64,000 nt of DNA from Polyangiaceae bacterium (GTDB lineage Bacteria > Myxococcota_A > Polyangia > Polyangiales > Polyangiaceae), in contig JANRKO010000033.1 in the NCBI GenBank assembly GCA_033763455.1, positions 198,002 to 262,001 of the forward strand, written 5' to 3'. The notes below the pieces were generated by a model that saw nothing but the letters and a program-made list of their open reading frames with translations, searched no databases and was not told where the DNA came from. Position numbers and translations under genes: made by a program. How positions within the stretch are numbered: position 1 is the first letter of the stretch; each line of letters begins with the position of its first letter. This document shows positions 43,821-64,000 of this stretch, in pieces.

Positions 43821-43888
43821 ACCCGAAGCTACGGCCGTGTCCGCGCCCGCGCCAGCCCGAAATGGTGAGCGCTCCCCCAAAGCCGACC

Positions 43889-44541: not shown

Positions 44542-44542
44542 A

Positions 44543-44633
44543 GTATATTTGTAGTATACTCGCTGTTCTGGGCGGGGCAAGGTGGGCAAGGGGCGCAAAA
44601 CGGGCTTGATCCCAAACATTACCGTGGTAATGT
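44543..44633. promoter_or_regulatory. Divergent TA promoter region with two palindromic operators
   Basis: AGTATA-N7-TATACT next to the RHH start; ACATTACC-gt-GGTAATGT (44616-44633) downstream of TTGATC, just before the AbrB ATG. Confidence 0.65.
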
Positions 44634-44639
44634 GAGTCT

Positions 44640-44900
44640 ATGCCGCTTCCGAATTCCAAAGTCACCGCGCAGGGGCAAATCTCGGTACCTGCCGAAATTC
44701 GGCGCAAATTAGGCATCGGCCCGGGCTCCGTCTTGGAGTGGCACGATGCGGGTGATCACGTGGTGGTTCGCAAAGCTGGGCGCTTTTCTTCGGAAGAAAT
44801 TCATCGCGCCGTTTTCGCCAAGCGCCCGCAACCTCAGAAGCTTGAGGCCCTAAAGGAAGCCGTGCGCAAGCATCTCCGGGAGAAGCATGCGCGCCGTTGA
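44640..44900 (+). CDS. AbrB/MazE/SpoVT family antitoxin
   Basis: SKVTAQGQISVPAEIRRKLGIGPG. Confidence 0.92.
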   Translation: MPLPNSKVTAQGQISVPAEIRRKLGIGPGSVLEWHDAGDHVVVRKAGRFSSEEIHRAVFAKRPQPQKLEALKEAVRKHLREKHARR

Positions 44901-45267
44901 CACAAATGTGCTGGTGCGTCTCATCACCCGTGATGATGCCGCCCAAGTTGCTTCAGCCGAGGCTTTTATCAAGAAGGGCGCGTGGGTATCCCATCTGGTT
45001 CTCGCCGAGCTCACCTGGGTGCTCGGCGCAGCCTACGGGCTCGGCCACGCAGCCATCGCGACGACCATTGAAATGTTGCTCAGCCATGCACAATTGACGC
45101 TGCAGGATTCGGACGTAGTGCTCGAAGCTCTCACCCACTACCGAAAGAAGCCGGCATTGGGCTTCTCCGATTGCTTGGTGCTAGAGATCGCAAAAAAGGC
45201 CGGGCATACGCCGCTTGGAACGTTTGCTCGGAGTCTCAGCAGGCTCGACGGCGTTGAACGGGTGTAG
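44887..45267 (+). CDS. vapC: PIN-domain toxin (VapC)
   Basis: AVDTNVLVR, VLAELTWVL and FSDCL; overlaps the antitoxin. The usual C-terminal TFD reads TFA. Confidence 0.9.
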   Translation: MRAVDTNVLVRLITRDDAAQVASAEAFIKKGAWVSHLVLAELTWVLGAAYGLGHAAIATTIEMLLSHAQLTLQDSDVVLEALTHYRKKPALGFSDCLVLEIAKKAGHTPLGTFARSLSRLDGVERV

Positions 45268-45324
45268 GGCGCACTGTGAAGGGCGGCGTTGGGAGGGCTC
45301 GCACTCACACGTTTTTTGTGTCAG

Positions 45325-46503: not shown

Positions 46504-46509
46504 GGGCCA

Positions 46510-46559
46510 AGTATCGACAAGCTATGAAAATTGTCAATTGCATTTACAATTTTCATAGC
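46510..46559 (-). promoter_or_regulatory. Sigma-70 promoter overlapped by a perfect 14-bp inverted repeat
   Basis: GCTATGAAAATTGT-N11-ACAATTTTCATAGC (46521-46559); the minus strand reads TTGACA-N16-GATACT-N6-ATG. Confidence 0.8.
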
Positions 46560-46716
46560 CTAAACCGCAGAAACAGGGTCATTGAGGGCCACTGGCAACC
46601 GCCCGACTTGCTCCCCAACTTGCGCCCCCATTAAACTAAGGATGACTCCGTGGATGGGCCCAATCGGCGGCGTGATTAGGCGTGACTTGTCGGATGTACA
46701 GTGTGGGCCTGGCCAC

Positions 46717-48165: not shown

Positions 48166-48316
48166 TACAGGTACCCTTGCTGGTTGTGGCGCGAGAAGAG
48201 TTTAACGTTCATGCTTCCCTCCGCATCATGCCTTCGTTGCAGTCGCCATTGCCACCGGCCCCGACGTTCCCGGACTCCAGGGCGGCCTTGTCCAGTGACG
48301 GCCGCCGCCCTAAACG

Positions 48317-49135
48317 TCACCTAGCCGCGCCCGAACCCTCCTGCGGCAGCAGCTCGATGCTCATGCCAGTCACGAACCCCACGACGCAACGGACCTCGAT
48401 GCGATCGTCGAAGACGGCGACAGCAACGTACGAGCTCGGGTTGCTCATGTCCCGGTGGATGACGGCGTCAATAACAACTTCGCGCAGCGCCTCCGCAGCC
48501 ACCGGCAGCCGGTCTTCGCGGTTAATGGCGCCCGAAGGAAAGCGCGCGGAGATTGGCAAAGTCCGGTCGAGCCAAGCCGTAGAGCATCTGCGCGGCCTGA
48601 GTGATCTGCCCATCGATACGTAGGCCGAGCCGGTCGAGAATATCGCCAACGTCCATGCTCGTGCCGGCCGAGAGCCGCCGCTGCTCAATTGCGGTTTGCC
48701 TTGTGCGGAGGACCTCCTCGCGGTCGAGGTCGTCCAGCCTCACTCCCACGGCGGGCTGATTCTCCCAGCGATGCCGGCTGTGATTGCGATCAAGGAGCGG
48801 GCGCCCGTATTCCTCTTGCGACATCACCGTCGTCGTCGATCCCACGCGCTTGTACGGCTTCGCCTCAAAGACGAACGGTGCGTACTGCAAGGACGGTGCT
48901 GCATCGAGCACGATCACTTGTCGGCCGTTGCCGAGGTCCACACGGCTCATCTCAACGCGCGCTGGTGGCTCAAAAACGGCCGAGCATTGCCGCGACGTCG
49001 CGGAGCGTGATGTCGGCGACCTCTTGACCGACGAGTTTTCCGTCGGGGCCTACGCCAATGAGCACCTTGCCGCCGTCACCGTTCAGAAACGCACAAAGGG
49101 ACTCACCAGCGCGGCGCAACTCGGCGGTTTGATCG
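48317..49135 (-). pseudogene. Decayed second AlbA_2/RecG-C-like gene
   Basis: Three fragments in separate ORFs: CAFLNGDGGKVLIGV; YKRVGSTT; ALREVVIDAVIHRD..FDDRIEV. Both ends are truncated and there is an apparent internal deletion. Confidence 0.85.
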
Positions 49136-49266
49136 AAAGAGTCCCGGGCGGCTAGAGCCAAAGCAACGCTCGGTCTTTTGGCCGGTTCGACAATAAGCGG
49201 GGCTTCCCGTACGGTCGCAAGTTATCTTTAGCAAGCGATGCAGCGTGGCTGCGGAAGGGGCCGGCG

Positions 49267-50274
49267 GTGGGTCAACAGAACAGATACAAGAGCGTCACTC
49301 GCGTATTCCAAGCGTTTGCCGAGCAGCGCACTTGGAAGCAGGCGGAATTGGCACGCGATGTAGGAATTAGTGCAGACGCGTTACGCACTCTACTGCAAGA
49401 ATTGCAGGCATCTGGCATGAAGCTGCACCAAGAATCCGAGCCCCCACAGGTTTATTGGAGCGTACCGAAGGGCTGGTTCCCAGGCGGGATTCTACTTTCC
49501 GACTCCGATTTTCCGACGCTTTTGCGCGCCGCCTTCGAATTGCCCGAGAGTACCGCCCGCACCTCACTTTTGAAGAAAATCTTGGGCACTCAAGGCCATC
49601 CTGAAGCCACTGAGCTCGTGTTAACTCGCGAGGGCAACCCGCGGGAAGATTTGGCGTATGAAGTGGTCCAAAAGGCACTCGTAGAGAACAAGGCACTGCA
49701 GCTCCTCTACCTGACGCAAAGCCGAGGCGTTGAGGGGTCCCGCGTGGTTTCGCCGCAAAAGCTCGTAACGCGCCCCCACCCTCGCCTGCTCGCCTGGTGC
49801 CACCAGACCTGCGAACTGCGCTGGTTTCGTCTGGACAACGTGCTCAGCGCCAGCCTCGGCAACGCGGAGGCCTTCGTGACTTGCAGTGCAGAAGCGGTAA
49901 AGCGCGTCCTCAAGGAAAGCGTGGACGGCTTCCACGGCTCCGAGCCCGAAGGTAGCGAGGAACTGGCATTCTTCGTGCGCCATCCGGAGGCCAGCTGGGT
50001 GAAGAAGAACCTTCTTTCGTCCATGCGCGTCGATGCTAGGGGCTCCACATCCGAAGGCATACGGATCGTTTGTGGGCGTCGAGGTGCACCCGTGGTGGCG
50101 CGCTTCGTAGTGGGCCTTGGCGCTGCCGCTCGCGCGGAGGGTCCCTTATTAAAGGCGCAGGTGGTCAACCTCGCCGAAGAATCCTTGCGCGTGCACACGG
50201 GGGGAGTGAAACGTACGGCGGGGCGCACGCCGCGCGTGAGCGCTGTTAAGTTGGCAGCAAAGGGGAAAGGGTAA
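49267..50274 (+). CDS. WYL-domain transcriptional regulator (HTH-WYL-WCX)
   Basis: QAELARDVGIS helix-turn-helix; Y..SRG....RVVSP..L, LLAWCH...ELRWFRLDNV. Confidence 0.9.
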   Translation: MGQQNRYKSVTRVFQAFAEQRTWKQAELARDVGISADALRTLLQELQASGMKLHQESEPPQVYWSVPKGWFPGGILLSDSDFPTLLRAAFELPESTARTSLLKKILGTQGHPEATELVLTREGNPREDLAYEVVQKALVENKALQLLYLTQSRGVEGSRVVSPQKLVTRPHPRLLAWCHQTCELRWFRLDNVLSASLGNAEAFVTCSAEAVKRVLKESVDGFHGSEPEGSEELAFFVRHPEASWVKKNLLSSMRVDARGSTSEGIRIVCGRRGAPVVARFVVGLGAAARAEGPLLKAQVVNLAEESLRVHTGGVKRTAGRTPRVSAVKLAAKGKG

Positions 50275-50398
50275 TGTTGGGGATCCAGCGTTTGGGAGCG
50301 GCTGCACTGAACAGGTGCGAAGTGCCGGCTAATTATGGCAATGGTTGGCGGGGTGGGGTGTGGGATGAAGGGGTGGTGATGGAAAAGGTGTGTGCAAC

Positions 50399-50536
50399 AT
50401 GAGAGGCGCTCCAACGACCTTCTGGGGAAAGCTTGAGCGTGATGAGACGAACACCGTACGCGCGTGGCACCCGCTGCTTGCGCATTGTGCGGATGTTGCG
50501 GCCCAACGATGCGGGCTGGGCGGGCGCTATGGATGA
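50399..50536 (+). pseudogene. cas3: N-terminal remnant of a stand-alone (I-E-like) Cas3 HD domain
   Basis: Manual translation MRGAPTTFWGKLERDETNTVRAWHPLLAHCADVAA followed by 10 unrelated residues; the stop overlaps the start of cas1. Too short for the ORF track. Confidence 0.75.
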
Positions 50537-51500
50537 ACTATCTCCTTCCGATCTAAAATCAATTCTCCACTCTAAGCGCGCGAATCTGTATTACCTTGAG
50601 CATTGCCGCGTGTTGGTGAATGGGGGGCGCGTGGAGTATGTTACCGAGCAGGGGAGCAAATCGCTCTACTGGAACATTCCGATTGCTAACACCACCAGTA
50701 TTCTGCTCGGTACGGGCACTTCAGTCACGCAAGCAGCTATGCGAGAGCTTGCGAAGGCAGGCGTTCTCGTTGGTTTCTGCGGAGGCGGCGGTACGCCCTT
50801 GTTCAGCGCGAACGAGGTAGATGTGGAATTCGCCTGGTTCACGCCGCAGAGCGAATACCGCCCAACCGAGCACTTGCAGCGCTGGGTGCACTTTTGGTTT
50901 GACGCCTCCGCGAGGTTGGAAGCCGCCAAGCTACTGCAGCGTGCCCGCTTGAACTTTGTCGCCAAGCACTGGCTTGCGGACCGTTCGTTTACACAGCGCA
51001 GCGCCGAGGCAACGGAGCGGTCACTGTTGCCTCTCCTTGAAGAAACAAGCCACGCTGTTGACGCCGCTGGGGATGTGACGTCTCTGCTTACGGTCGAGGC
51101 ACGCCTGACTAAGGCTCTTTACAAGTTGGCCGCTACAGCCACTCGATTCGGGGAATTCACCCGAAGCAAGAACGGCGCGGGGGGCGATCCTGCGAACCGT
51201 TTCCTGGATCATGGAAACTACCTGGCTTACGGTTTGGCTGGAACAGCCACCTGGGTGCTGGGGCTTCCGCATGGCTTAGCCGTCATGCATGGTAAGACGC
51301 GGCGGGGAGGCTTGGTGTTCGACGTAGCAGATCTGGTGAAGGACGCGTTGGTGCTGCCCCAAGCCTTCGTTTCTGCAGCACGAGGCGACGAAGATCAAGA
51401 ATTTCGTGTGGCTTGCCTGGACAAACTCACGCGCGCTGAAGCTCTCGATTTCATGATTGATACGCTCAAGGATGTGGCTTTGAGCGTGGGGCAATCCTGA
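50529..51500 (+). CDS. cas1f: Type I-F Cas1
   Basis: SDLKSILHSKRAN.YYLEHCRV, YWNIPIANT, RFLDHGNYLAYG and HGKTRRGGLVFDVAD. Confidence 0.97.
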   Translation: MDELSPSDLKSILHSKRANLYYLEHCRVLVNGGRVEYVTEQGSKSLYWNIPIANTTSILLGTGTSVTQAAMRELAKAGVLVGFCGGGGTPLFSANEVDVEFAWFTPQSEYRPTEHLQRWVHFWFDASARLEAAKLLQRARLNFVAKHWLADRSFTQRSAEATERSLLPLLEETSHAVDAAGDVTSLLTVEARLTKALYKLAATATRFGEFTRSKNGAGGDPANRFLDHGNYLAYGLAGTATWVLGLPHGLAVMHGKTRRGGLVFDVADLVKDALVLPQAFVSAARGDEDQEFRVACLDKLTRAEALDFMIDTLKDVALSVGQS

Positions 51501-51501
51501 C

Positions 51502-54500
51502 ATGAACGTCCTTATCGTGTCCCAGTGCGACAAGCGAGCCCTCCCCGAAACGCGACGGATTCTGGATCAGTTCGCCGAGCGTCGAGGCAACCGCACCTGG
51601 CAAACACCCATCACCCAGGCTGGCCTGGACACATTGCGCAAGATGTTGCGGCGGAGTGCGCGGAAGAACACAGCTGTAGCGTGCCATTGGATTCGGGGAC
51701 GAGATCACAGCGAGTTGGTGTGGGTTGTCGGAAATGCGGGGCGGTTCAATGAAGTAGGCGCGGTCCCGACCAATACCACTGAGCGTGATGTTCTAAGAGG
51801 CAGGCACGAGAACGACTGGCTAACCGGGGAAGAGATTCGCCTTCTGGCCGTTATGGCCTCCCTGTTCCATGATTTTGGAAAGTCCAGTCAAGCCTTTCAA
51901 ACCAAGCTCACCGCTTCACCAGGGCAAGCGATTGCGGATGCTTATCGGCACGAATGGGTTTCCTTACGCCTGTTCGAGGCATTCGTCGGGACTGATGACG
52001 ATTCTGGGTGGCTCACACGCCTCGTTCAATGCGACGAGAACGCGTCCGCGGATTGCCTGAGTCGCCTGGCCCGTGACGACCAGAAGGGTTGCCGATCTCC
52101 ATTTTCGGAGGGCAGGCTTCCCCCGCTCGCACAAGCGGTGGGTTGGCTCGTGGTCAGCCATCACCGGTTGCTCTTGCCACAGAGCGACGCAAGGGTTGGC
52201 ACACTGCGAGCACTACTCTCCCCTGTCTTGGCGAACTGGAACGGAGCTCGGGAAGGCGCTTCGGATCAGGAAAAACGAGATTGTTGGCACTTTCCACGAG
52301 GTTTGCCTTTCGCAAGTCGTGATTGGCGCGCCCGTGCGAGCAAGTGTGCCCGAGACATGCTTTCTCTCCCCGTGTTCGTGGAGAGAGCCCCCAAGCTGCT
52401 GGATGACCATTACACAATGCATCTCGCACGCGCGTCGTTGATGCTCGCGGATCATCATTACTCCAGCGGCCCATCCGAAACGCGTTATGGAGATGCAGCG
52501 TTTCCGCTCTACGCAAATACAGACCGCAAGACGGGCCAACTCAAGCAGAGATTGGATGAGCACTTAGTTGGCGTATCGCGATTCGCTCGCCGCGTTGTGC
52601 TCGCTCTGCCACGACTGGAGCGCGAATTGCCTAGAATCGCCCGCGCAAAAGCCTTCAAGAGGCGCTCTACTGACGAGAGATTCCGGTGGCAAGACAAGTC
52701 GTATGATCTTGCTTGCGGTGTCCGACAACACTCCTTGGAGCACGGTTTCTTCGGTGTGAATATGGCATCCACGGGTTGTGGCAAGACGCTGGCGAACGGA
52801 AGAATCGTCTACGCGCTCGCTGATCCCGCGATGGGCGCACGCTTCACCGTTGCTCTCGGCCTACGAACGCTGACGCTGCAGACCGGAGAGGCATATCGAA
52901 AGCGCCTTCACTTGGGTGATGACGATCTTGCGGTATTAGTTGGAGGCGGTGGCGTGCGTCAGCTGTTTGAAATGGGAAACGGCGGCGCACGTGGCTCCTG
53001 GGAACGTCATGGGAGCGAGTCGGCAGAGGAGCTCCTCAGTGACGACAGCTATGTTCACTTTGAAGGCAGCCTGACTGACGGCCCATTGAAAGACTATCTC
53101 TCAAAAGATCACGATACGATGAAGCTGCTCCAAGCGCCTGTCTTGTGCTGCACCATCGACCACCTCGTACCAGCTACAGAGAGCCTCCGGGGTGGCCGAC
53201 AGATTGGGCCAATGTTGCGCTTAATGAGCTCTGATCTGGTTTTGGATGAGCCGGATGACTTTGATGTGGCGGATCTTCCGGCGCTCAGCCGCTTGGTGCA
53301 CTGGGCAGGCATGTTGGGGAGTCGGGTGCTGCTTTCTTCGGCAACTCTACCCCCCTCGCTTGTTGAGGGCCTGTTTGAAGCGTACCGCGCAGGGCGCGCG
53401 AGCTTTCAAAGCGTACGCGGCGCGCCGGGGCGTGCCCTAAGCGTTTCCTGCGCTTGGTTCGATGAATATCGGTGCGAGTCTAGCCAATTCGGCAATTCAG
53501 CCGACTTCAGACAAGGGCACAATCAGTTCGTGGATCGCAGGCTGAGCAGCTTGCGTGAAGCGGCGCCTCGCAGGAAGGTTGAGCTAGTTGTGGTGAAGAG
53601 TGCCACGACCGAACGAGACGGGATTTGCACGGAACTAGGCCAACAGCTGGTGCCCTACATCACCGAGCTTCACAGGAGGCACCATACCGTGGACCCGATG
53701 AGCGCTAAACGCGTGAGTTTTGGGCTGATACGTATGGCCAACATCGAGCCATTGATTCGAGTAGCTCAGGCGCTTTGTTCGCAAGAGTTCGACCGCCACC
53801 GGCTCCATCTTTGCGTCTATCATTCGCACCACTTACTTCTGGTGCGCGCGGGGATCGAGCGAACGCTGGACAAAGTATTGCAGCGAAGCCAAGAACTTGC
53901 AGTCTTCGAAGAGCCGGAAATTCGCGCAGCTCTAGACGCGGACGGCCCTTGCGATCAGGCATTTGTGGTAATCGCATCACCTGTTGCGGAGGTAGGACGA
54001 GATCATGATTACGACTGGGCAATCGTAGAACCGTCTTCCATGCGGTCCATTATTCAGCTCGCCGGACGGGTTCGACGTCATCGCCCGGGCGGCTGCACCG
54101 AGCCGAATATGATGGTGTTCCACAAGAACGTGAAGGCGTTAGCCAATAGGCTCCCCGCGTATTGCAGGCCCGGGTTTGAGTTGGAGGGCTTGATGCTCAA
54201 GACGCACGATTTGCGCGAGCTGTTGACGTCTGAGCAGCTTGATCCGCTGGACGCTTCTTCACGCATCCGTGAACGCATCACACTAGACTATGAGAAGAAC
54301 CTGGTTGACCTCGAACAACAGAGGTTACGCATGATGATGCTAGGGTTGGGAGCATCTCCAACTGCCTTCTCGGTGCCCATGTGGTGGCAGACGCGAGCAC
54401 CTCTATCTGGCGTGCTCCAGCATGCGCAGCGCTTTCGTGCTGGGGAGCCAATGAGTGCATTCGCCCTCGTCCCGAACGAGGAAGGCGAGGAGTTTGGGTT

Positions 54501-54741
54501 CCAGAGTTGGGACAGGGAGTGGGCGAACGTTGGAAGTCAGTTCAAGGAAGTTGGTTTTCAGATGGGCCCACACGTCCGGCTGTGGGGTGCCCCTAACTAC
54601 CGCGATGAGCTGCTCCGCCTGGCCGAGGAGCTGGATATGGACCTTGTACGGTGCGCCCGGAGGTTCGGTCTGGTGCAGCTGCCGGAGCGAACGCAAGGGT
54701 GGTGGTACTGCTCAAGCCTGGGTTTTTGGGAACACGGTTAG
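51502..54741 (+). CDS. cas3f: Type I-F Cas2-Cas3 fusion helicase-nuclease
   Basis: Cas2 part (VSQCDKRAL..RRILDQFAER..TWQT.IT), HDFGK, MASTGCGKT, DEPD, SSAT and IQLAGRV.RHR. Confidence 0.97.
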   Translation: MNVLIVSQCDKRALPETRRILDQFAERRGNRTWQTPITQAGLDTLRKMLRRSARKNTAVACHWIRGRDHSELVWVVGNAGRFNEVGAVPTNTTERDVLRGRHENDWLTGEEIRLLAVMASLFHDFGKSSQAFQTKLTASPGQAIADAYRHEWVSLRLFEAFVGTDDDSGWLTRLVQCDENASADCLSRLARDDQKGCRSPFSEGRLPPLAQAVGWLVVSHHRLLLPQSDARVGTLRALLSPVLANWNGAREGASDQEKRDCWHFPRGLPFASRDWRARASKCARDMLSLPVFVERAPKLLDDHYTMHLARASLMLADHHYSSGPSETRYGDAAFPLYANTDRKTGQLKQRLDEHLVGVSRFARRVVLALPRLERELPRIARAKAFKRRSTDERFRWQDKSYDLACGVRQHSLEHGFFGVNMASTGCGKTLANGRIVYALADPAMGARFTVALGLRTLTLQTGEAYRKRLHLGDDDLAVLVGGGGVRQLFEMGNGGARGSWERHGSESAEELLSDDSYVHFEGSLTDGPLKDYLSKDHDTMKLLQAPVLCCTIDHLVPATESLRGGRQIGPMLRLMSSDLVLDEPDDFDVADLPALSRLVHWAGMLGSRVLLSSATLPPSLVEGLFEAYRAGRASFQSVRGAPGRALSVSCAWFDEYRCESSQFGNSADFRQGHNQFVDRRLSSLREAAPRRKVELVVVKSATTERDGICTELGQQLVPYITELHRRHHTVDPMSAKRVSFGLIRMANIEPLIRVAQALCSQEFDRHRLHLCVYHSHHLLLVRAGIERTLDKVLQRSQELAVFEEPEIRAALDADGPCDQAFVVIASPVAEVGRDHDYDWAIVEPSSMRSIIQLAGRVRRHRPGGCTEPNMMVFHKNVKALANRLPAYCRPGFELEGLMLKTHDLRELLTSEQLDPLDASSRIRERITLDYEKNLVDLEQQRLRMMMLGLGASPTAFSVPMWWQTRAPLSGVLQHAQRFRAGEPMSAFALVPNEEGEEFGFQSWDREWANVGSQFKEVGFQMGPHVRLWGAPNYRDELLRLAEELDMDLVRCARRFGLVQLPERTQGWWYCSSLGFWEHG

Positions 54742-54810: not shown

Positions 54811-56103
54811 ATGAACGACGAGGAACAGGAAATTCGAGAAGCCATGCACGCGTTCGTCGCGGAGAGGCTAGCAACTAAGCTCGAAAAGCTGAAGGAGAGG
54901 GATGGGGCGAAGGCCGAGGAGCTCCAGAAGCAGTATGAGCCGCAAGCTTGGCTCGCTGACGCCGCAAATCGAGTCAAACAGATCCAGCTCGCCTCTCACA
55001 CGCTAAAGTCGATTCATCCGGATGCGCGCGGGACCAATCTACACGTGATCCAAGGAGACCCGGGGTTAGGTCTCGTTGGGACACACGGCGTCCGACACAG
55101 TCGCGTCAATGATGTCGTCGGAAATGCGGCAGCATTGGATGTCTACAAGTTTCTGAATGTGAGCGTCAATGGGAGAACGTTACTTGAACGGGCGTTTGAG
55201 CACGACGAAAGCTTCATTCGTGCCCTGTCCAGCAATCGTAAGGAAGCCCACGAGTGGTGCTCCGCATTTGCGAGTATAAGGGAAATCAAGGGGTCGGTTT
55301 CGTCGCACACGCTCGCCAAGCAACTCTATCTGCCCCTAGATGACGGCAACTACCACCTGTTAGCACCGCTGTTTCCAACATCACTGGTCCATGCAGCGTG
55401 GAGCCAAATGAAGGAAGATCGATTTGGAGACGGAGCCAAAGCCGCAAGGCAAGCCCGCAAGGACGGCAAGCCTCATGATCGGGGATTCCGGGAGTATCCC
55501 AACCTTGCGATTCAGAAGCTCGGCGGCACCAAACCCCAAAATATCAGCCAGCTCAACAGCGAACGCCATGGCGAAAATTGGATACTTCCATGCCTTCCCC
55601 CGGTGTGGAAGTCGCCTGAGGTGCGCGCCCCCTTGGGGATTACCTCCGTATTCGACGGAGCGTTCGGACGCCAGAAGGGCGTGCGGGCGTTGACGCGCTC
55701 CCTGCGCGATTTTCTGGAGGCCACGACGCACAACAATGCTGGGATCAGACGACACCGAGCTTCCTTGGTTCAGCAGATCTGCAAAGAGGCACTCGACTAC
55801 GCTGCGCGCTTGCGGCAGCTGCCTGCTGGCTGGACCAAGCACGAGCGATGTAGGCTCCATCCTGCAGAAAAGCTCTGGCTTGATCCCCTCTTCGTTCATG
55901 AGGATGAGCAGTTTAGAGCGGAGCGACGTGCGGGCGACTGGCTAGACGAAGTTGGCCGGCGCTTTGGCAACTGGCTCAATGCTAGCCTGGCTTCGAAGAA
56001 AGTCGCCCTCGGGGATGAAGAACACGCCCAGTGGACCGCCGATCTAGTGGGAGAGCTCGGTACGTTTCGCGAAATGATGGAGGCCGATGATGATTTACCC
56101 TGA
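54811..56103 (+). CDS. csy1: Type I-F Cas8f (Csy1)
   Basis: HPDARG, DVVGNAAALDV, HTLAKQLY and GGTKPQNISQLNSER. Confidence 0.96.
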   Translation: MNDEEQEIREAMHAFVAERLATKLEKLKERDGAKAEELQKQYEPQAWLADAANRVKQIQLASHTLKSIHPDARGTNLHVIQGDPGLGLVGTHGVRHSRVNDVVGNAAALDVYKFLNVSVNGRTLLERAFEHDESFIRALSSNRKEAHEWCSAFASIREIKGSVSSHTLAKQLYLPLDDGNYHLLAPLFPTSLVHAAWSQMKEDRFGDGAKAARQARKDGKPHDRGFREYPNLAIQKLGGTKPQNISQLNSERHGENWILPCLPPVWKSPEVRAPLGITSVFDGAFGRQKGVRALTRSLRDFLEATTHNNAGIRRHRASLVQQICKEALDYAARLRQLPAGWTKHERCRLHPAEKLWLDPLFVHEDEQFRAERRAGDWLDEVGRRFGNWLNASLASKKVALGDEEHAQWTADLVGELGTFREMMEADDDLP

Positions 56104-57091
56104 AGCACTTCTTTTGCTGCCACACTTGCTCGTGCAAAACGCCAACGCGATTGCCAGCCCGCTCACGTGGGGCTTCCCTTCGCCATCTGCGTTCACCGGG
56201 TTCGTCCACGCGCTCCAACGAAACGTGGCGAGCGACCTCAATGTCAAGTTTGAAGGTGTTGGAATCGTTTGCCACCACTTCGAGGCGCAAGCCTCCCAAC
56301 CGTCTGGGAAGCGGACCCGGGTATTTCACCTTACGCGCAACCCCGTGGGAAAAAGCGGCGAGACCTTGGCGATCGTCGAAGAGGGCCGCGCAAATCTAGA
56401 AATAAGCTTGCTCATAGGTGTTTCTGGGGCGGGCCTCGATGCGGGCATGCCGCGAGAGGAACTGGCCGCGCAAATCTGGGATTGCGCGATGAGCATGCGC
56501 ATTGCGGGAGGAAGTATTTGTCCGCCCACGCAAGTGCTCTCGAAATGGGAAAGGCCGCGAATCGATGATTGGCCTGGCACTCCTGCCGCAGAGCAGAAGC
56601 TGTCGCGCGCGATTGCCAGCCGCTTGCTCCCCGGATTCGCGATCGTGAGCCGCGAAAATCTACTGGCCCAACGCTTCGCTGAACTGCGCGCACTCGATGA
56701 TCGGGCGACGGAATTGGACGCCCTTCTTGACCTCACCAGCCTGTCCTATGATCCACCTCTCCCGTCGGGGGAGAGCGAGACAGCGAACGACCGAACGCCT
56801 CAATCCGGGTGGCACATTCGTTCAAAAGAGGGTTGGCTTGTTCCCATACCTGCTGGATATCAGGGAATTTCCGAGCTGTACCCGCCCGGGGTGGTCGAGA
56901 ACGTCCGCGACAGAAACACCCCGTTTCGCTTCGTCGAAGGGGTCTACTCGATTGGTCAGTGGCTCAGCCCGCATCGAGTCAAGGACGTTAGACAGCTCCT
57001 ATGGGTTCATCAAACTGATCTCGAGAAAGGCATCTATCGCTGGACCACGCCGCACTTTGCAGCTCTCAACGCATCAAAAGAAGGGAATTAA
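56087..57091 (+). CDS. csy2: Type I-F Cas5f (Csy2)
   Basis: [26 protein letters not shown] and [10 protein letters not shown]. Confidence 0.96.
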
Positions 57092-57095: not shown

Positions 57096-58121
57096 ATGGC
57101 AAACAACGAGATATCTACAGCTTCCGTACTCGCCTTCGAGCGAAAACTCGACCCATCAGATGGGCTGTTTAGTGCAGGCAATTGGGCCGATAGGAAAAGC
57201 ACAAACTGGCCACCCGTCGCTGTGCGTGAGAAATCCGTCCGAGGAACTATTTCGAATAGGCTCAAAGCGAAAGACCAGGACCCCGCCAAGCTTGACGGAA
57301 AGATTCAGTCCCCAAATCTACAGCGAGTAGATGTTGCCACCCTGCCGCCGGACGCTGACACTCTTCGTGTCAAGTTCACTCTAAGAGTGCTAGGTGGCGC
57401 GGGGCATCCGTCGGCCTGCAATAGCGACGCATATCAGACGAAACTGCTTGATACCGTCAACGCGTATGTGAACTCACAGGGTTTCTCGGTGCTTGCCACG
57501 CGGTACGCCTTCAACCTTGCAAACGGCCGGTTCCTTTGGAGGAATCGTGTAGGCGCTGAGGCTGTGGAGGTCACGGTAACGCAACTCAAGGATGGGAAGG
57601 CTCAAGATGAGTGGTGCTTTGATTCGCTCAAAATCAGCCTCCGCGAGTTTACCGAGAACGCTGAGTTGAAGCGCCTCGCTTCAGCTATTGAAGGCGGATT
57701 GGCTGGGAGCAGCCACGTGTTGTTGCAGGTCGTGGCTCACGTTCGCATTGGTAACGGTCAGGAAGTGTTCCCGTCCCAGGAACTCATCCTGGATAAGGGT
57801 GACAAGAAGGGGCAGAAGAGCAAGACACTCTACACGGTGAGAGATGTCGCCGGGCTCCATTCTCAAAAAGTCGGAAACGCACTGCGCACCATTGACACTT
57901 GGTATCCGGATTCAGCCGAGCTTGGTCCCATCGCAATTGAGCCATACGGCTCGGTGACTTCGCTGGGCAAAGCCTATCGGCAGCCGAAGCAGAAAATGGA
58001 TTTCTATACTCTCCTGGATCGATGGGTGCTCAAAGGTGAATCACCACCACTGGAGCAACAGCATTATGTGATGGCCAACTTGGTTCGCGGCGGCGTGTTC
58101 GGAGAATCGGAGAAGGATTGA
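57096..58121 (+). CDS. csy3: Type I-F Cas7f (Csy3)
   Basis: [35 protein letters not shown] and RGGVFG. True start is MANN at 57096. Confidence 0.97.
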
Positions 58122-58125: not shown

Positions 58126-58686
58126 ATGGACCATTATTTGGATCTAAGGGTACTTCCGGACCCCGAGTTCCCGGCCTCACAGCTGATGAGCGCACTGTTC
58201 ATGAAGCTGCACCGGGTGCTGGCTCGAACCTCAGCAGGCAACATTGGCGTGAGCTTTCCAGCGGTGAACGAAGACGCTCCCCACCTTGGAAACACGCTAC
58301 GCCTGCACGGGACAGCTCAGGCCTTCGAACTTCTTATGCGTGAACCGTGGCTCACCGGTATGAGGGACCACATCAGCATTGGTGGAGTGGCGGCCGTTCC
58401 GTCCAATGTCGCGTATCGCCGCGTGCGCCGAGTGCAAGCGAAGAGCAATGTGGAGCGCGTTCGGCGGCGTCAGATGAAGCGCCATGGCTGGTCGGATGCG
58501 GAGGCCCGCGAGCGCATTCCCAGGACCGCCGAACGCACCCTCTCCCTGCCCTACTTGCAGCTGTATAGTGAAAGTACGGGTCACAAGTTCCCACTGTTCC
58601 TACGTCATGAAGCGGCTGAGAGCTCCACTCCGGGGGTGTTCAACGCCTACGGGCTCAGTGACACAGCCACGTTGCCCTGGTTCTGA
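58126..58686 (+). CDS. cas6f: Type I-F Cas6f (Csy4)
   Basis: DPEF..LM..LF.KLH, IGVSFP, Arg-rich helix, FNAYGLS and PWF. Confidence 0.97.
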   Translation: MDHYLDLRVLPDPEFPASQLMSALFMKLHRVLARTSAGNIGVSFPAVNEDAPHLGNTLRLHGTAQAFELLMREPWLTGMRDHISIGGVAAVPSNVAYRRVRRVQAKSNVERVRRRQMKRHGWSDAEARERIPRTAERTLSLPYLQLYSESTGHKFPLFLRHEAAESSTPGVFNAYGLSDTATLPWF

Positions 58687-58837: not shown

Positions 58838-61327
58838 GTTCACTGCCGCACAGGCAGCTTAGAAAATGTTGAGCTCGACAAGGGCGAGATACCAATTGTT
58901 CACTGCCGCACAGGCAGCTTAGAAAAAGGAAGCGGCGCCCGAAGGCGAAACCCCCTAGTTCACTGCCGCACAGGCAGCTTAGAAATCGCGAACCACGCGC
59001 ACGTCGCGGTCAACCACGTTCACTGCCGCACAGGCAGCTTAGAAACATCCGCAACTGGGGCAAGCACCAGAAGATTGAGTTCACTGCCGCACAGGCAGCT
59101 TAGAAATACAAGCGAGCGCCAGACTGGGACCGCGAAGAGTTCACTGCCGCACAGGCAGCTTAGAAATACCGCGTCGAGCTCCCCACGGGCGCCGTCGTGT
59201 TCACTGCCGCACAGGCAGCTTAGAAAACCGGCATCTTGAAAGTCACGGTTCCAATGAGGTTCACTGCCGCACAGGCAGCTTAGAAAATCTCCGAGCAAGG
59301 GCGGGCCCCAAAGAACGAGTTCACTGCCGCACAGGCAGCTTAGAAAGCCCTCCTCAAGCGTTGCCGAAGCGTCGAGACGTTCACTGCCGCACAGGCAGCT
59401 TAGAAATGAGCGTCTTCAAGGCCCTGCCTGACAACATCGTTCACTGCCGCACAGGCAGCTTAGAAAGCGAGCGTGAGCCCGTCTCGGTTCTCCTTGCGGT
59501 TCACTGCCGCACAGGCAGCTTAGAAAAAGGGGTCGAAGGCAACCTTGCTGCACAAGGTGTTCACTGCCGCACAGGCAGCTTAGAAAATTGTGTGGGGAGC
59601 CATAATGGTGGCGGCTGCGTTCACTGCCGCACAGGCAGCTTAGAAACCGACGCGCGCGGGTTAGACGGTCTCGAAGTTCGTTCACTGCCGCACAGGCAGC
59701 TTAGAAAAAGAGGAAGCGGCGGAGGTGGCAGCGTGAGCCGTTCACTGCCGCACAGGCAGCTTAGAAAATTCAGCAGCTGGTTCGGGCTGCGGTGTGGAAG
59801 TTCACTGCCGCACAGGCAGCTTAGAAATTCATAGGCCGCTCGCGTGAGTGAGAATTTTGGTTCACTGCCGCACAGGCAGCTTAGAAACTAAAGGATTCCC
59901 AGTCCCCACCCCACTCAATGTTCACTGCCGCACAGGCAGCTTAGAAAATATGGGGAGGGCCGGGTCGTGAGCGTGACAAGTTCACTGCCGCACAGGCAGC
60001 TTAGAAATCTACCACCCGATAGTCGCACACACGCTTGAGGTTCACTGCCGCACAGGCAGCTTAGAAAGTATGGTGTAACCACACGCTCCACATTCTCCCG
60101 TTCACTGCCGCACAGGCAGCTTAGAAACACTCCAGGGAGCACTTGCGGGATGCGTCCTTGTTCACTGCCGCACAGGCAGCTTAGAAAGGACGCTCCGGAA
60201 TGCTACACCGGTCACACGCGTTCACTGCCGCACAGGCAGCTTAGAAAAAGTCGGTCCTCCGCTGATTGTCTATGGTTTCGTTCACTGCCGCACAGGCAGC
60301 TTAGAAAAGGGATGCTCGCGTTGCCGCATATTGGGACGGGTTCACTGCCGCACAGGCAGCTTAGAAAACCCACGAGCTAGCTCCGTCTGCACTACTTAAG
60401 TTCACTGCCGCACAGGCAGCTTAGAAAATGCGCCGTGGTGTTCTATCGGGCTTTACCATGTTCACTGCCGCACAGGCAGCTTAGAAAGTGCTGAGGTAGG
60501 GCGAGACAATCGCATTGAAGTTCACTGCCGCACAGGCAGCTTAGAAAGTGGAGGATGTGCGCTTTGCATGCACGCCCCTGTTCACTGCCGCACAGGCAGC
60601 TTAGAAAAGGAGATATTAGACTCCTTGCCACACATACTAGTTCACTGCCGCACAGGCAGCTTAGAAAACTAGGGTTGGGAAGTTCAACTTCCTTCACGAG
60701 TTCACTGCCGCACAGGCAGCTTAGAAAGTTTGCTGACGACCGCTACAGCGCCACCTACCGTTCACTGCCGCACAGGCAGCTTAGAAATGCGAGCGGTGCG
60801 GGCATACGTGGGAGGTGGAGTTCACTGCCGCACAGGCAGCTTAGAAATGGTAACCCGGATTGAGTTTCGGAAGGTGGAGGTTCACTGCCGCACAGGCAGC
60901 TTAGAAAAGTAGATGCTGGCGTGATCGGGCAAGCCCCGCGTTCACTGCCGCACAGGCAGCTTAGAAATTAAAGGGCTTGTCCGACTTCCACGCCCGTATG
61001 TTCACTGCCGCACAGGCAGCTTAGAAATAGCGGACCCAAGGGTCGGATGACACGGGTCCGTTCACTGCCGCACAGGCAGCTTAGAAAAGTGGTTATCGGC
61101 GTCACCCGAGCCCCAACACGTTCACTGCCGCACAGGCAGCTTAGAAAGTAGCGCTTGGGCGCGGGCTCTTTGCGGTTCAAGTTCACTGCCGCACAGGCAG
61201 CTTAGAAAGTGAAAAAGCTCTAGTTTGTCCGTGTCCATCTGTTCACTGCCGCACAGGCAGCTTAGAAAAATTGGGCGCGCTTGGCGTCCTTGGCTTCCTC
61301 GTTCACTGCCGCACAGGCAGCTTAGAA
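58838..61327 (+). CRISPR. Type I-F CRISPR array, leader-proximal part: 42 repeats and 41 spacers
   Basis: 28-bp repeat GTTCACTGCCGCACAGGCAGCTTAGAAA with 32-nt spacers (three of 33 nt). The 42nd repeat is cut after base 27 by IS66. Confidence 0.99.
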
Positions 61328-61401
61328 GTGACCCATCAGCGACGCCGGGATGATCTCTTCGCAACTTCGGTGCAGGCTCGCGGGCGAAGCGGAGGTGTTG
61401 A

Positions 61402-61761
61402 GTGGCAAGGCGAAGAAAGATCAAGGATGAGGGCGAAGCAAAACGGTGCCTTTTGGCGGCCAGGCGTGGTGGGCAGGACGCGGCTGAGTGGGCTCGTTCC
61501 CACGGCATAGATGGGCGGTCGCTGAATGCGTGGCAGGTGAATTTAGAGCGGTGGGGGACGAGAGGTACGGCGCGCCCCCGTAAACGGCGTCCGGAGTCGC
61601 GAGCAAGAGCGCTGGTTGAGCTTGTTCCAAGGATGGGCAGCCGAAAGGCAGAGGCGGCAGGCCGATACGTGCTTGAGGTTGCTGGGGCGCGCGTGGAGTT
61701 TGGCGAGGAGGTCTCTGTGGCGACGTTGCGTAGGGTGCTTGAGGCTCTTCGCTCGTGCTGA
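61402..61761 (+). CDS. tnpA: IS66 TnpA
   Basis: AAEWARSHGI....LNAW helix-turn-helix and LRRVLEAL; position in the element. Confidence 0.85.
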   Translation: MARRRKIKDEGEAKRCLLAARRGGQDAAEWARSHGIDGRSLNAWQVNLERWGTRGTARPRKRRPESRARALVELVPRMGSRKAEAAGRYVLEVAGARVEFGEEVSVATLRRVLEALRSC

Positions 61762-62144
61762 GTTTGCCGCCGACGGTGCGGGTGTTTGTTGCGGTAGCGC
61801 CGCTCGACATGCGTGGCTCGTTCGACGCTTTGGCTGGCGCGGTGCGCGGGCTTGGGCTCGATCCGGTCGATGGCCATCTCTACCTCTTTCTCAACAAACG
61901 GAGGCGCCTAGCAAAGGCTTTGTGGTTCGATGGCTCGGGCTGGTGCGTGCTCGCGAAACGGCTGGAGGCTGGGAGTTTCCAGCTGCCGCCATTCGACGGT
62001 GACGAGCCGCAGGTGTCCATCGACGGCTCGATGTTCGCCTCTCTTTTGGCCGGTATCGACTACACGGCCGCACGGCGTGGGTGGTATCGGCGACCTCGGT
62101 TCGAAAAAACGCTGAAGAGGATCGACATGGATCGCCAAGTGTGA
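61755..62144 (+). CDS. tnpB: IS66 TnpB accessory protein
   Basis: PLDMRGSFDAL, LYLFLNKRR, K.LWFDGSG and KRLEAGSF. Confidence 0.93.
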   Translation: MLSLPPTVRVFVAVAPLDMRGSFDALAGAVRGLGLDPVDGHLYLFLNKRRRLAKALWFDGSGWCVLAKRLEAGSFQLPPFDGDEPQVSIDGSMFASLLAGIDYTAARRGWYRRPRFEKTLKRIDMDRQV

Positions 62145-62151
62145 TCTTTAC

Positions 62152-63660
62152 TTGTCAGTGGACGAGCTCGAAGCGTTGCGAAAGGAGAATGCGGCGCTGC
62201 GGCATCAGATTTCGCAACTTGTGGTCGCGCTCGCACGACTCAATGAGCGTGTCTCTGAGCTGCTCGCGGTAGCCCAGCGCAAACAGCGGAGGCCTCCCGC
62301 TCTGTCGGAGAAGCCGCCCGCGCCACCGCCCACCGTGGAGGATGAGGCACGGCGCGCCTTCGACGAGCGCCCGAAAGCCCCCGAGAAGCCCCCTCAGGAG
62401 AAGTTGCCAAAGCAGAAGTCGAAGCCCACGGGGCGCAAACCCATCCCCCAGCACCTCGAAGCCGAGGAGCACGAGTTGCGGCCCAATGCCTGCTCGGCGT
62501 GTCACGCAACGGACTTGGACGTCGTTGACGAGCTCATCGAAGAGAAGCTTCACGTCGTCAAGGAGCACCAGCGTCGTCGAGTGGTGCGGCGGTACACCTG
62601 TCGGTGCCGCTCATGCGGCGGGCGTACGACGCTTCGCTCGCTGCCTGCTCCCTACGAGCGCTCTAAGGTGACTTGCGAGTGGCTTGGGTGGCTCGTTTAT
62701 CAGAAATTCTGGCTGCTTACACCGCTCGACCGCATCCGTCGCGATCTGGCTCAGCGAGGTGTGCCCATCGCGATGAGTACGCTCGTGACCCTCATCGAGC
62801 GCGCGGCGGACTTGCTTGCGAGCATCGACGGTTTGCATTGGAAGCAGCTGCTAGCAAGCCCTTGGATGGCTACCGATGGGACCGGACTTAAAGTCATCGT
62901 GCCCAAACTCCCAGTCGCTCACAACGGCTACATTGAGCTCTATCGAAACAGCGATTGCGCTGTTTTTCAGTACGAAGCTGACAAGAGTGGCGAGGTCGTC
63001 CTTTCGAAGCTCCAGGCATTCCGTGGCACTCTCACCGCCGACGCTGAGCATCGATTCAACGCCGTCTTCGCTTCAGGGCTTGTGCTTGAAGCAGGGTGCA
63101 ACGCTCACGGTCGCAGAAAGTTCCGCGATGCCGAAGACACTCAGCCGGTGCTCGCTAAAGAGGGGGGCGCGTTCATCGGCGCCATGTACGGCGAAGAGGA
63201 AAAGGCGCAAAAGCTCGCCCTCATCGGTGACGCACTTCGCCAACATCGACAGCGATACATGCGCCCCATCGTGCGAGACTTTGAGTTCTGGCGCAACGCC
63301 GTAGAACCAACCCTTCTGCCTTCCGAGCCACTGGCGGTGGCGATTCGCTACTACAACAACCACAGCGATGCGCTCTTCCGCTTCATCGACGATCCGCTCG
63401 TACCCATCGACAATTCGCCAACCGAACGCGACTTCCAAAACGTCGCCAAGCTGCGCCTCAACATGCTCTTTGCGGGTAGTACCGAGGGCGCTCACCGCGC
63501 CTGCGTCCTCCTCGGTATTGTCGCCACCTGCCGCGCCCAAGGCGTGCCCGTCCAAGCTTATCTCACGTGGGCCTTTGAGCGCCTCGGTACTCACCGCGAC
63601 CTCTTTGCCCTCCCCCTCGAAGCCATGACACCCGCTGCCTTCAAGAAAACCCTCCCCTAA
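62152..63660 (+). CDS. tnpC: IS66 TnpC DDE transposase
   Basis: Coiled coil, CSAC/CRSC zinc finger, TDGT, GCNAHGRRKF and PIDNSPTER. Confidence 0.93.
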   Translation: MSVDELEALRKENAALRHQISQLVVALARLNERVSELLAVAQRKQRRPPALSEKPPAPPPTVEDEARRAFDERPKAPEKPPQEKLPKQKSKPTGRKPIPQHLEAEEHELRPNACSACHATDLDVVDELIEEKLHVVKEHQRRRVVRRYTCRCRSCGGRTTLRSLPAPYERSKVTCEWLGWLVYQKFWLLTPLDRIRRDLAQRGVPIAMSTLVTLIERAADLLASIDGLHWKQLLASPWMATDGTGLKVIVPKLPVAHNGYIELYRNSDCAVFQYEADKSGEVVLSKLQAFRGTLTADAEHRFNAVFASGLVLEAGCNAHGRRKFRDAEDTQPVLAKEGGAFIGAMYGEEEKAQKLALIGDALRQHRQRYMRPIVRDFEFWRNAVEPTLLPSEPLAVAIRYYNNHSDALFRFIDDPLVPIDNSPTERDFQNVAKLRLNMLFAGSTEGAHRACVLLGIVATCRAQGVPVQAYLTWAFERLGTHRDLFALPLEAMTPAAFKKTLP

Positions 63661-63712
63661 CTTCAACGCACGTTTCCATAACGTGCGCATCCCGGTGTCG
63701 CTGATGGGTCAC

Positions 63713-63883
63713 GCTTAGAAAGCGAGGACCCTGGCGATATCGCCGCACGCGTCGTTCACTGCCGCACAGGCAGCTTAGAAATTGCCGTCGCGGTTGGGCT
63801 CCTCGACCACCACGTTCACTGCCGCACAGGCAGCTTAGAAAACAGGGGCTCGGTAGCGGTGTCCAAGTCTCCCGTTCACTGCC
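63713..63883 (+). CRISPR. Type I-F CRISPR array, distal part: 3 spacers, 2 full repeats and a partial repeat
   Basis: Repeat tail GCTTAGAAA at 63713-63721, full repeats at 63754 and 63814, and only GTTCACTGCC at 63874-63883. Confidence 0.95.
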
Positions 63884-64000
63884 TGTTAGCGGGCACATAA
63901 AACGGCGCAAATGTGAGCGCGTCTAGTTGGGGTTCCGCTGTTTTGTGTGGGCGCGTTCCTTGGCTTCTTTGGCGCGATAGCTCTGGCCTTCGATGGGGAT

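Follow-up and report, generated by a model that had tools for sequence, protein, structure and literature searches.

WYL regulators adjoin CRISPR-Cas loci and have been predicted to act in their transcriptional control (Makarova et al. 2014, PMC4012209); one of them, Sll7009, is cited there as a repressor of the I-D system in Synechocystis. WYL repressors of the BrxR/CapW type lie upstream of diverse defence systems (Picton et al. 2022, PMC9122601; PMC9122589; PMC13622015). A WYL or HTH gene also adjoins cas1 in I-F1 loci of Shewanella xiamenensis (PMC12887000). Shuffling of CRISPR-Cas loci is already known, as is the occurrence of WYL regulators beside many defence systems. Exchange of one system for another is usually inferred from trees; in the window described here (the whole 64-kb stretch of DNA analysed) the break itself survives and can be located to about 15 bases, with the start codon and 35 codons of the older system separating the regulator from the newer one. 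The locus is a clear evolutionary scar within a known kind of system: type I-E was once here and type I-F is here now.

As in the cases treated in PMC4012209, the gene for the WYL protein borders a type I operon, and the protein matches a CRISPR-associated WYL model of PADLOC (PDLC01457, E 7.6e-15). The locus differs from those cases in that members of one WYL family stand in front of five type I subtypes and a relic of the predecessor has been kept. It resembles the BrxR/CapW arrangement in having one regulator family with many defence cargos downstream and a conserved short box near the regulator gene. However, the best solved relatives of the window WYL protein are PafC and PafBC rather than BrxR: the family profile finds PafC (7p5x) at E 4e-18 and also PafBC (6sj9), to which it aligns from query position 16, whereas the match to BrxR (7t8k) is remote (E 5e-4 over about 80 residues, query 120-197). 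The BrxR boxes lie upstream of brxR and form inverted repeats, whereas the conserved block in the window lies downstream of the WYL stop and has no long inverted repeat. Neither the close sequence relation nor the upstream inverted-repeat boxes that characterise the BrxR family are found for this protein. The Shewanella xiamenensis I-F1 loci belong to a different phylum, and the accessible part of PMC12887000 describes no cas3e relic. In the open-access literature we found no report of an I-F operon separated from a WYL gene by a cas3e stub, and no description of the Polyangia WYL family.

Table 1. Features of the WYL and type I-F locus (positions in the window)
Feature	Position	Strand	Evidence or remark
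WYL gene upstream flank, left part of the candidate WYL module; presumed WYL promoter region	49150..49266	+	
WYL-domain regulator gene, 335 aa	49267..50274	+	Pfam WYL PF13280, E 8e-10
Conserved intergenic block past WYL stop, candidate promoter/operator	50306..50388	+	Includes box 50308-50323
Mini-ORF (relic plus 10 unrelated codons)	50399..50536	+	Stop overlaps cas1f start
Type I-E cas3 relic, native start codon and codons 2-35 (HD domain start)	50399..50503	+	
Junction interval between I-E-derived and I-F-derived sequence	50504..50518	.	Approximate, single comparator (L007)
cas1f	50529..51500	+	TIGR03637, 493 bits
cas2-3f	51502..54741	+	TIGR02562, 1249 bits; PF21384 I-F Cas2 domain, residues 1-79
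csy1 (cas8f)	54811..56103	+	PF09611, E 1.7e-125
csy2 (cas5f)	56087..57091	+	PF09614, E 1.3e-95
csy3 (cas7f)	57096..58121	+	PF09615, E 2.7e-148, on residues 141-469 of long ORF 56697-58121; start chosen at in-frame ATG 57096
cas6f (csy4)	58126..58686	+	PF09618, E 8.3e-64
I-F CRISPR array	58838..64000	+	28-nt repeats, 32-33-nt spacers, 44 repeats within window

The mini-ORF runs from ATG 50399 to the TGA at 50534-50536 and has 45 codons (MRGAPTTFWGKLERDETNTVRAWHPLLAHCADVAAQRCGLGGRYG); the ORF listing starts it at GTG 50390, but the alignment of relatives favours ATG 50399. Its stop end overlaps the cas1f ATG (50529-50531) by 8 nt. A preliminary description of this DNA had placed a 45-codon ORF here, between the WYL gene and cas1f, and had read it as the HD-domain start of a stand-alone, type I-E-like Cas3 whose pattern is lost about 25 nt before the cas1 ATG. 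The coordinates and the reading both hold, and the similarity ends after DVAA at 50503, 25 nt short of that ATG. The peptide scores above the Pfam cut-off for Cas3_HD (PF18019; 26.5 bits against a gathering threshold of 23.1, E 7.6e-6), with peptide residues 12-38 aligned to profile positions 1-24 of 207 only, and it keeps the W-G-K and W-H-P-L..H..D-V-A-A motifs of the HD domain start. The match to the NCBIfam I-E Cas3 model PRK09694 is weak (E 0.004, model positions 9-36) and far under the full-length cut-off of 569. When the full-length Cas3e of locus L026 was compared with all six frames of the window by tblastn, the sole match was 50393-50503 (74% identity, E 9.4e-13). A phmmer search of 5.8 billion proteins gave 26 candidates, 20 of them at E<=1e-3 (best 1.2e-10); all 20 carry Cas3_HD, and 13 are proteins of 874-901 aa that have helicase domains too. 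The 35 codons at 50399-50503 are genuinely the N-terminus of a stand-alone I-E Cas3. Short Cas3e-like proteins (P0141, P0145) also exist.

The peptide is short and covers only those 24 profile positions, which is what could be said for a resemblance to Cas3 arising by chance. The E values in the window and in the protein database refute an ORF unrelated to cas3, and start codon, position and strand all match those of full-length cas3 behind WYL homologues, so that this reading can practically be dismissed. The stub comprises 35 of about 890 Cas3 residues; the HD catalytic core (H-D motif) and the SF2 helicase domains are absent. It shares with stand-alone I-E Cas3 (PRK09694/Cas3_HD) the N-terminal start and is what is left of an enzyme rather than a working one. 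For annotation this means that the 45-codon ORF should be treated as a fragment of a pseudogene and not as a gene; it is most likely a by-product.

The preliminary description had proposed looking in related genomes for a WYL gene followed by a full-length cas3/cse operon. Two Polyangia loci, L026 and L011, have exactly this: a WYL homologue, directly followed by a full-length stand-alone cas3 and a full I-E operon. In both, cas3 comes first, with cse1, cse2, cas7e, cas5e, cas6e, cas1e and I-E-type arrays, although cse1 gave a Pfam match in L011 only. Both Cas3 proteins have PRK09694, the I-E-type Cas3 model, as their best match, though under its cut-off. Their cas3 starts 49 nt (L026) and 92 nt (L011) after the WYL stop, and the start codons align with ATG 50399. 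The stub is identical to the L026 protein at 27/35 positions and to the L011 protein at 26/35, and these two share 26/35 of their first residues with each other. The pN/pS values of the stub (0.16 against L026, 0.25 against L011) are not above that between L026 and L011 (0.27), and thus no extra decay is visible. Since L026 and L011 combine a WYL gene, the same cas3 N-terminus and an I-E operon, the stub is the relic of a WYL-cas3e arrangement, and these sequence comparisons show that such an arrangement once stood at the window's locus.

Beyond the stub, cas3e has been lost at this locus from codon 36 onward. Homology to Cas3e ends after DVAA, where the relatives go on C/V-A/T-E-A/S-LL, and similarity to the I-F locus of L007 begins at -10 of the cas1f ATG (8/10 identical). 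The I-F system thus starts 10-25 nt past the break and has kept at most about 25 nt of its own upstream sequence. The window lacks the set of parts that makes a type I-E system (cse1, cse2, cas7e, cas5e, cas6e, cas1e/cas2e and repeats). Apart from the stub, no further Cas3e similarity was detected in any frame by tblastn; the I-E-specific proteins of L026 gave no tblastn match better than E 0.08, a Cas1e query cross-matches cas1f, and no I-E-type repeats with up to 3 mismatches and no other I-E or I-C relics were found within the window. No GC or skew boundary marks the junction; the only compositional feature is that 50000-50600 is rich in G. The I-F locus runs on past base 64000, so that only one of its junctions is in view.

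Downstream of the break the I-F system is complete, with its cas1f, cas2-3 fusion, csy1-3 and cas6f, all six far above family cut-offs, and a 28-nt repeat array that continues past the window end and is split by an IS66-family element at 61329-63753. The flanking genes are those named in the preliminary description, WYL and cas1f, and cas2-3f opens with the I-F Cas2 domain. The Cas1f product is 74% identical to that of L007. I-F spacers directed against the lost I-E system were considered as a cause of deletion and rejected: comparison of 42 spacers with 80 WYL loci and the window gave only three partial matches (21-22 nt), to unrelated loci.

The WYL gene belongs to a family of 134 homologues, and those with names are from Myxococcota. 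Identity to the window protein is 66% in L001, 64% in L002 and 40% in L007, and three relatives known as proteins (P0006, P0008, P0009) are at 63-64%. The N-terminus has weak, sub-threshold HTH matches (residues 12-50, E 0.06-0.23). Homology to L001 and L002 starts about 120 nt 5' of the WYL start and nothing aligns beyond. On the other side the L001 sequence stops 33 nt after its WYL match, while 50306-50365 is identical to L002 (11028-11087) at 44/60 positions. The WYL coding sequence is 65% identical to that of L002 overall and 59% in its last 150 nt; conservation is higher in the 60-nt block that follows the WYL stop than in the gene. Similarity to L007 past the stop extends to 50388. The limits of homology are sharp at about 49150 and 50388, and past the block each sequence leads into a cassette of its own: the I-E stub in the window, I-C in L002, I-F in L007. 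Within the block, a box TGAAC-N7-AAGT lies at 50308-50323; the form TGAAC-N7-[CA]AGT occurs in 12/74 post-WYL regions and in 1% of background segments, an enrichment that is only suggestive because the loci share ancestry and the box was chosen post hoc. The block and this box are the pointers to a possible operator site. The stretch of about 49150-50388, made up of the WYL gene and its conserved flanks, is a candidate regulatory module. A scan for sigma-70-like promoters, which is unsuited to Myxococcota, gave none in 48600-50700; a terminator scan gave one terminator-like site, on the minus strand within WYL, which is no more than shuffled sequences give; and no Rfam family or unusual fold was found in 50275-50540 (z +0.45).

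The comparison set consisted of 80 WYL loci with fetched 10-kb flanks. The first gene downstream of WYL is a cas gene in 19 of them (15 of 54 scanned first ORFs plus L002, L007, L011 and L026), and the subtypes behind the family are I-E, I-C, I-F, I-G and I-MYXAN. A WYL tree of 76 rows joins the window to L001/L002 (I-C) at 100, then to L007 (I-F) at 96; the nearest neighbour with known context, L002, precedes I-C. The L011 WYL groups with L029/L064 at 100, whereas its Cas3 is 63% identical to that of L026 and only 30-31% to those of L029/L064. An AU test rejects a WYL clade of window, L011 and L026 (delta lnL 251, p 3e-144), the group having been named after the tree was seen. WYL and cas phylogenies disagree. 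The preliminary description had inferred that the I-F operon inherited the WYL regulator of the old I-E system. The WYL-cas3e order of L026 and L011 supports the core of that reading, an ancestral WYL-cas3e locus, but the window WYL falls outside the clades found with the closest Cas3e relatives, and its nearest kin precedes I-C; given that neighbour and the AU test, the WYL gene is better regarded as a platform common to subtypes than as an "I-E regulator". It had also held that relatives with this WYL gene directly upstream of I-F cas1, and no stand-alone cas3, would speak against an ancestral WYL-cas3 locus. L007 is such a relative in part: its WYL, of the sister lineage, lies directly upstream of I-F cas1, the 275-nt spacer between them holds no stub in any frame, and its 10-kb flank holds no stand-alone cas3. 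The WYL-I-F pairing may, on this evidence, predate the event, with I-E as a transient insert between.

We propose, with a probability of about 0.75, that the cas3e stub is in its native place and that the I-F operon now lies behind the former WYL-cas3e module, under WYL control. The stub would still be in its original position, about 125 nt downstream of the WYL gene, and the module would supply promoter and operator to whichever type I operon follows. The I-F operon would be transcribed from the module, through the stub, and by this route would come under control of the WYL protein, which by analogy with other WYL regulators would most likely be a ligand-responsive repressor. The exchange may have been one recombination replacing the I-E cassette or a deletion fusing adjacent I-E and I-F loci. 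The ancestral WYL-cas3e locus of the preliminary description is thus retained, while its displacement in place by a full I-F cassette is not distinguishable from a fusing deletion. A wider version of the proposal, which we consider doubtful as a whole, would have the Polyangia WYL gene and its promoter/operator block act as a conserved docking platform where type I cas operons (I-E, I-C, I-F, I-G, I-MYXAN) are swapped at a hot spot of recombination some tens of bases past the WYL stop; newcomers, bringing hardly any upstream sequence or none, would be wired at once into the same infection-sensing switch, and the old cas3e start and leader would be kept as the I-F 5' leader, possibly with coupling.

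A deletion between tandem loci, in which a WYL-I-E locus was followed by an independent I-F locus and everything from cas3e codon 36 to cas1f was removed, is a possible if tentative account. The single clean junction and native stub position are what one deletion would leave, the I-F cassette is compositionally like its surroundings, the sister WYL lineage L007 has I-F nearby, and no incoming cassette is needed. However, none of the 80 loci has I-E and I-F in tandem within the fetched flanks, although those of L026 and L011, 10 kb long, already end inside the I-E array and so say little on this point, and it would be a coincidence that the I-F operon lost almost all of its native upstream sequence. 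It is unlikely that, instead, a resident I-F system captured the regulator through recombination of a WYL-promoter-cas3e-5' segment that replaced its native upstream region. The sharp module limits, the non-syntenic neighbourhoods and the incongruent WYL and cas trees would fit, but the conserved module does not include the stub, which means that a captured segment would need to consist of the module plus 115 nt of I-E, and no inverted repeats >17 nt occur in 48900-50560, module ends included, nor does anything else mark the module as mobile. The genes upstream share no synteny with the 80 loci, save one unrelated Uma2 match in L078, and are themselves defence-like or mobile (Schlafen/AlbA_2, AAA_14-DUF4143, Uma2, YhgA-like); with such variability throughout the region, there is no part that qualifies as resident.

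The mini-ORF might also be a maintained element, either a leader ORF feeding ribosomes to the cas1f start or a small peptide. No stop interrupts its frame between the native ATG and the TGA 5 nt beyond the cas1f ATG, AAGGTG lies 10 nt 5' of ATG 50399, and the stub has no excess of non-synonymous change. Yet a run of ten codons without a stop past the break is no more than chance predicts, the low pN/pS is mostly a legacy of the time before the break, the HD catalytic motif is missing, the leader has no unusual RNA structure or Rfam match, and L007 has no such ORF, all of which makes a maintained function quite improbable. In the arrangement we favour, the mini-ORF stop over the cas1f ATG could couple translation, as the preliminary description had suggested; coupling is not required because cas1f has its own SD-like sequence (GGGCGGG), with a duplex energy within the range of other cas genes, although these energies were computed with a consensus anti-SD and do not discriminate for or against coupling.

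As an example of a defence operon being plugged into a regulatory module that was already there, the locus is concrete and testable. The Polyangia WYL family, together with the block that follows its stop codon, is a candidate for a switch shared by at least five type I subtypes.

By its sequence, the start of the mini-ORF between the WYL gene and cas1f is a relic of an I-E cas3. Its coordinates and peptide, re-read from the sequence, agree with the preliminary description: residues 1–35 (the stub) are MRGAPTTFWGKLERDETNTVRAWHPLLAHCADVAA and the final ten are QRCGLGGRYG, with a stop that overlaps the cas1f start. Residues 12–38 align with positions 1–24 of the 207 in the Pfam Cas3_HD profile (26.5 bits against a cut-off of 23.1, E 7.6e-6), and PRK09694, the NCBIfam model for I-E-type Cas3, matches the peptide weakly (model positions 9–36). 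A search of 5.8 billion proteins, aimed at longer partners, returned 26 candidates, 20 of them at E≤1e-3 (best 1.2e-10, 63–80% identity). All 20 carry Cas3_HD and 13 are full-length (874–901 aa) with helicase domains. The matched Cas3 proteins start M-K/R-G-x-P-T-x-FWGKL...WHPLLAHCADVAA, then C/V-A/T-E-A/S-LL; the stub tracks this pattern up to DVAA (50503) and diverges after it. The Cas2-3 of the window's I-F system has no Cas3e-like N-terminus and its HD match begins at profile position 42. Two short database proteins may likewise be cas3e relics that were truncated or frameshifted: P0141, of 165 aa and from a Myxococcales contig of 1,008,301 bp, and P0145, of 132 aa and from a contig of 12.8 kb, share the Cas3e N-terminus and have tails that depart from the family pattern.

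Relatives with a WYL gene followed by a full-length cas3/cse operon had been predicted, and two are found among 80 loci recovered from Polyangia genomes and MAGs with an alignment of 27 WYL homologues. In L026 and L011, cas3 (929 and 887 aa as listed) begins 49 and 92 nt past the WYL stop, with start codons that align with ATG 50399. It is followed by cse1 (with a Pfam match in L011 only), cse2, cas7e, cas5e, cas6e and cas1e, and then by an array whose 29-nt repeats recur every 61 nt, as is usual for I-E. The stub is identical to the first 35 Cas3 residues at 27/35 positions in L026 and 26/35 in L011; full-length L026 Cas3 gives a single match in the six frames of the window (50393–50503, 74% identity, E 9.4e-13). 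The pN/pS of the stub against these two working Cas3 is 0.16 and 0.25, and 0.27 between the two. The stub is as close to each as they are mutually, which over only 35 codons would fit a recent event or selection.

A complete I-F system begins at cas1f and goes on with cas2-3f, csy1, csy2, csy3, cas6f and an array of 28-nt repeats that extends to the window end. Among the relatives, only L007 also has an I-F locus; it and the window are alike from some 10 nt before the cas1f ATG onward (8/10 nt identical, then coding similarity), which places the I-E/I-F break within 50504–50518. On the WYL side, similarity to L007 extends to 50388, 10 nt short of the stub ATG. No further I-E or I-C relics and no I-E repeats were found within the window. 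Beyond an IS66-family element that splits the array, I-F repeats restart at 63754 and continue off the window end.

Features of the WYL–I-F region and its surroundings (window positions)
Feature	Position	Strand	Remarks
YhgA-like transposase	42067–43176		
Uma2 endonuclease	43257–43901	-	
AAA_14/DUF4143 ATPase	45325–46503	-	
Schlafen AlbA_2/HATPase_c_4 protein	46717–48165	-	
WYL gene	49267–50274		
Box TGAAC-N7-AAGT	50308–50323		inside post-stop block
Mini-ORF	50399–50536	+	ATG to TGA, 45 codons; between WYL gene and cas1f
cas1f	from 50529 (ATG)	+	TIGR03637, 493 bits
cas2-3f	next after cas1f	+	TIGR02562, 1249 bits
IS66-family element	61329–63753		2425 bp; splits I-F array
Small ORF upstream of TnpB_IS66	61402–61761		no Pfam match; inside IS66-family element
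TnpB_IS66 ORF	61755–62144		inside IS66-family element
DDE_Tnp_IS66 transposase	62152–63660		inside IS66-family element

A search with the WYL protein gives 134 homologues at E≤1e-3, four of them 63–64% identical and the others about 35–45%; those with names are all from Myxococcota. Homology to L001 (protein identity 66%) and L002 (64%), the nearest relatives with available sequence, sets in some 120 nt before the WYL start. A block after the stop (50306–50365) matches L002 11028–11087 at 44/60 positions, compared with 65% identity over the WYL coding sequence and 59% in its last 150 nt. Past this block the sequences diverge, L002 continuing with an I-C operon (cas3, cas5c, csd1, cas7c, cas4, cas1). 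The block contains a box, TGAAC-N7-[CA]AGT, found at most about 35 nt from the WYL stop in 12/74 loci (the window, L002, L005, L015, L022, L048, L056, L063, L068, L072, L073 and L074) and in 47/4800 random segments (1%). Its spacing is always 7 nt, irrespective of the downstream system (I-C, I-G, I-MYXAN or non-cas). Because the pattern, taken up after a k-mer screen, was defined post hoc and the loci are related, the box is a lead as a candidate operator of the WYL family. GC skew is strongly positive (up to +0.29) at 50000–50600, and G-runs (GGGGTGGGGTGTGGGATGAAGGGGTGGTG) in the WYL–stub intergenic region are partly common to L002 and L007. Upstream, 42067–48165 has the look of a variable region of defence or mobile genes, and no ORF in 48166–49266 (about 1.1 kb) gives a Pfam match.

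The WYL gene is a platform common to several CRISPR-Cas subtypes, not the private regulator of an I-E system. The first downstream ORF of at least 150 aa was examined in 58 loci (54 scanned, plus L002, L011, L026 and L007); the other 22 had no such ORF or too short a flank. In 19 of the 58 this ORF is a cas gene: I-E in L011, L026, L029, L055 and also L064 (cas1e downstream, cas3 divergent upstream); I-C in L002, L040 and L037; I-F in L007; I-G in L063 and L078 (Cas3g above cut-off), L079 (Cas3g just below cut-off, cut by the contig end), L074 and L075 (Cas7g in NCBIfam) and L076 (Pfam Cas_GSU0053 only); I-MYXAN in L022 and L067 (Cas6/Cmx6); and a Cas3 without subtype call in L056 and L068. 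Among the 54 scanned ORFs, nine are non-cas (PD-(D/E)XK, two DUF2779, RmuC, two kinases, FHA, GerE and a sigma-like protein), one has a DEAD match alone and 29 have no Pfam match. This amends the suggestion that the I-F operon took over the WYL regulator of a displaced type I system.

The WYL tree (76 rows, quick method with SH-aLRT support, five loci with matches below 250 residues excluded) disagrees with the cassettes. The window clusters with L001 and L002 (I-C) at 100 and next with L007 (I-F) at 96, and the I-E-associated WYLs are placed elsewhere. Forcing the window, L011 and L026 into one clade, a group chosen after the tree was seen, costs 251 log-likelihood units (p-AU 3e-144). L011 is a second mismatch: its WYL clusters with L029 and L064 at 100, and its Cas3 is 63% identical to that of L026 and only 30–31% to those of L029 and L064, giving a WYL of one group and an I-E operon of the L026 kind. 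It follows that regulators and cassettes have repeatedly been re-paired, the stub being a physical trace of one such event. A 34-row clade (L004–L006, L008–L010, L012–L019 and others) has no cas neighbour. PD-(D/E)XK, DUF2779 and RmuC are among the first ORFs downstream of its WYL genes, and many of these ORFs lack a Pfam match. They are possible defence genes, as yet uncharacterised, controlled by a regulator of the same kind.

More than one route could have led to this arrangement. In-place displacement of I-E by I-F had been proposed; the cas3e relic and the present position of the I-F system behind the WYL gene agree with it. A single recombination may have put I-F in place of I-E, or a deletion may have fused adjacent I-E and I-F loci, but both predict an identical structure: the window shows the proximal junction and the distal one lies outside, and in both L026 and L011 the 10-kb flank stops within the array. 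The order is similarly arguable. L007, of the sister WYL lineage, is paired with I-F across a 275-nt spacer from WYL to cas1f and has no stub. It is in part the kind of relative that had been named as evidence against an ancestral WYL–cas3 locus. With I-F already present in L007, WYL–I-F may be the older state and I-E a transient insert.

We infer that the I-F operon would now be transcribed from the WYL module, because nearly all native I-F upstream sequence is lost; a consensus promoter scan found no promoter. Translational coupling of the mini-ORF to cas1f, as suggested earlier, is possible from the geometry but would not be needed, since cas1f carries its own SD-like GGGCGGG, whose duplex energy falls among those of the other cas genes. 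The WYL–cas1f intergenic and stub region has no RNA family match or unusual fold.

WYL proteins adjoining CRISPR-Cas loci were described in 2014 as predicted ligand-sensing regulators, and the I-D repressor Sll7009 is cited there (PMC4012209, in excerpt). Passages of later papers present the BrxR family as WYL regulators that precede a variety of defence systems (PMC9122601) and note that WYL or HTH genes occur close to cas1 in I-F1 loci (PMC12887000). The window WYL protein matches the PADLOC model for CRISPR-associated WYL; its nearest solved structures are PafC/PafBC, and BrxR is only remotely related. BrxR-type regulators upstream of diverse defence systems are reportedly also the subject of two further papers (PMC9122589 and PMC13622015). 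Searches of the open-access literature turned up neither a cas3e relic lying between WYL and I-F genes nor a description of this Polyangia WYL family. The preliminary description is confirmed, and its interpretation is right at the core: an I-E cas3 relic is present and an I-F system now lies behind the WYL gene. The locus adds a well-documented new case of processes already known, in which CRISPR-Cas and WYL-linked defence loci are shuffled as modules.
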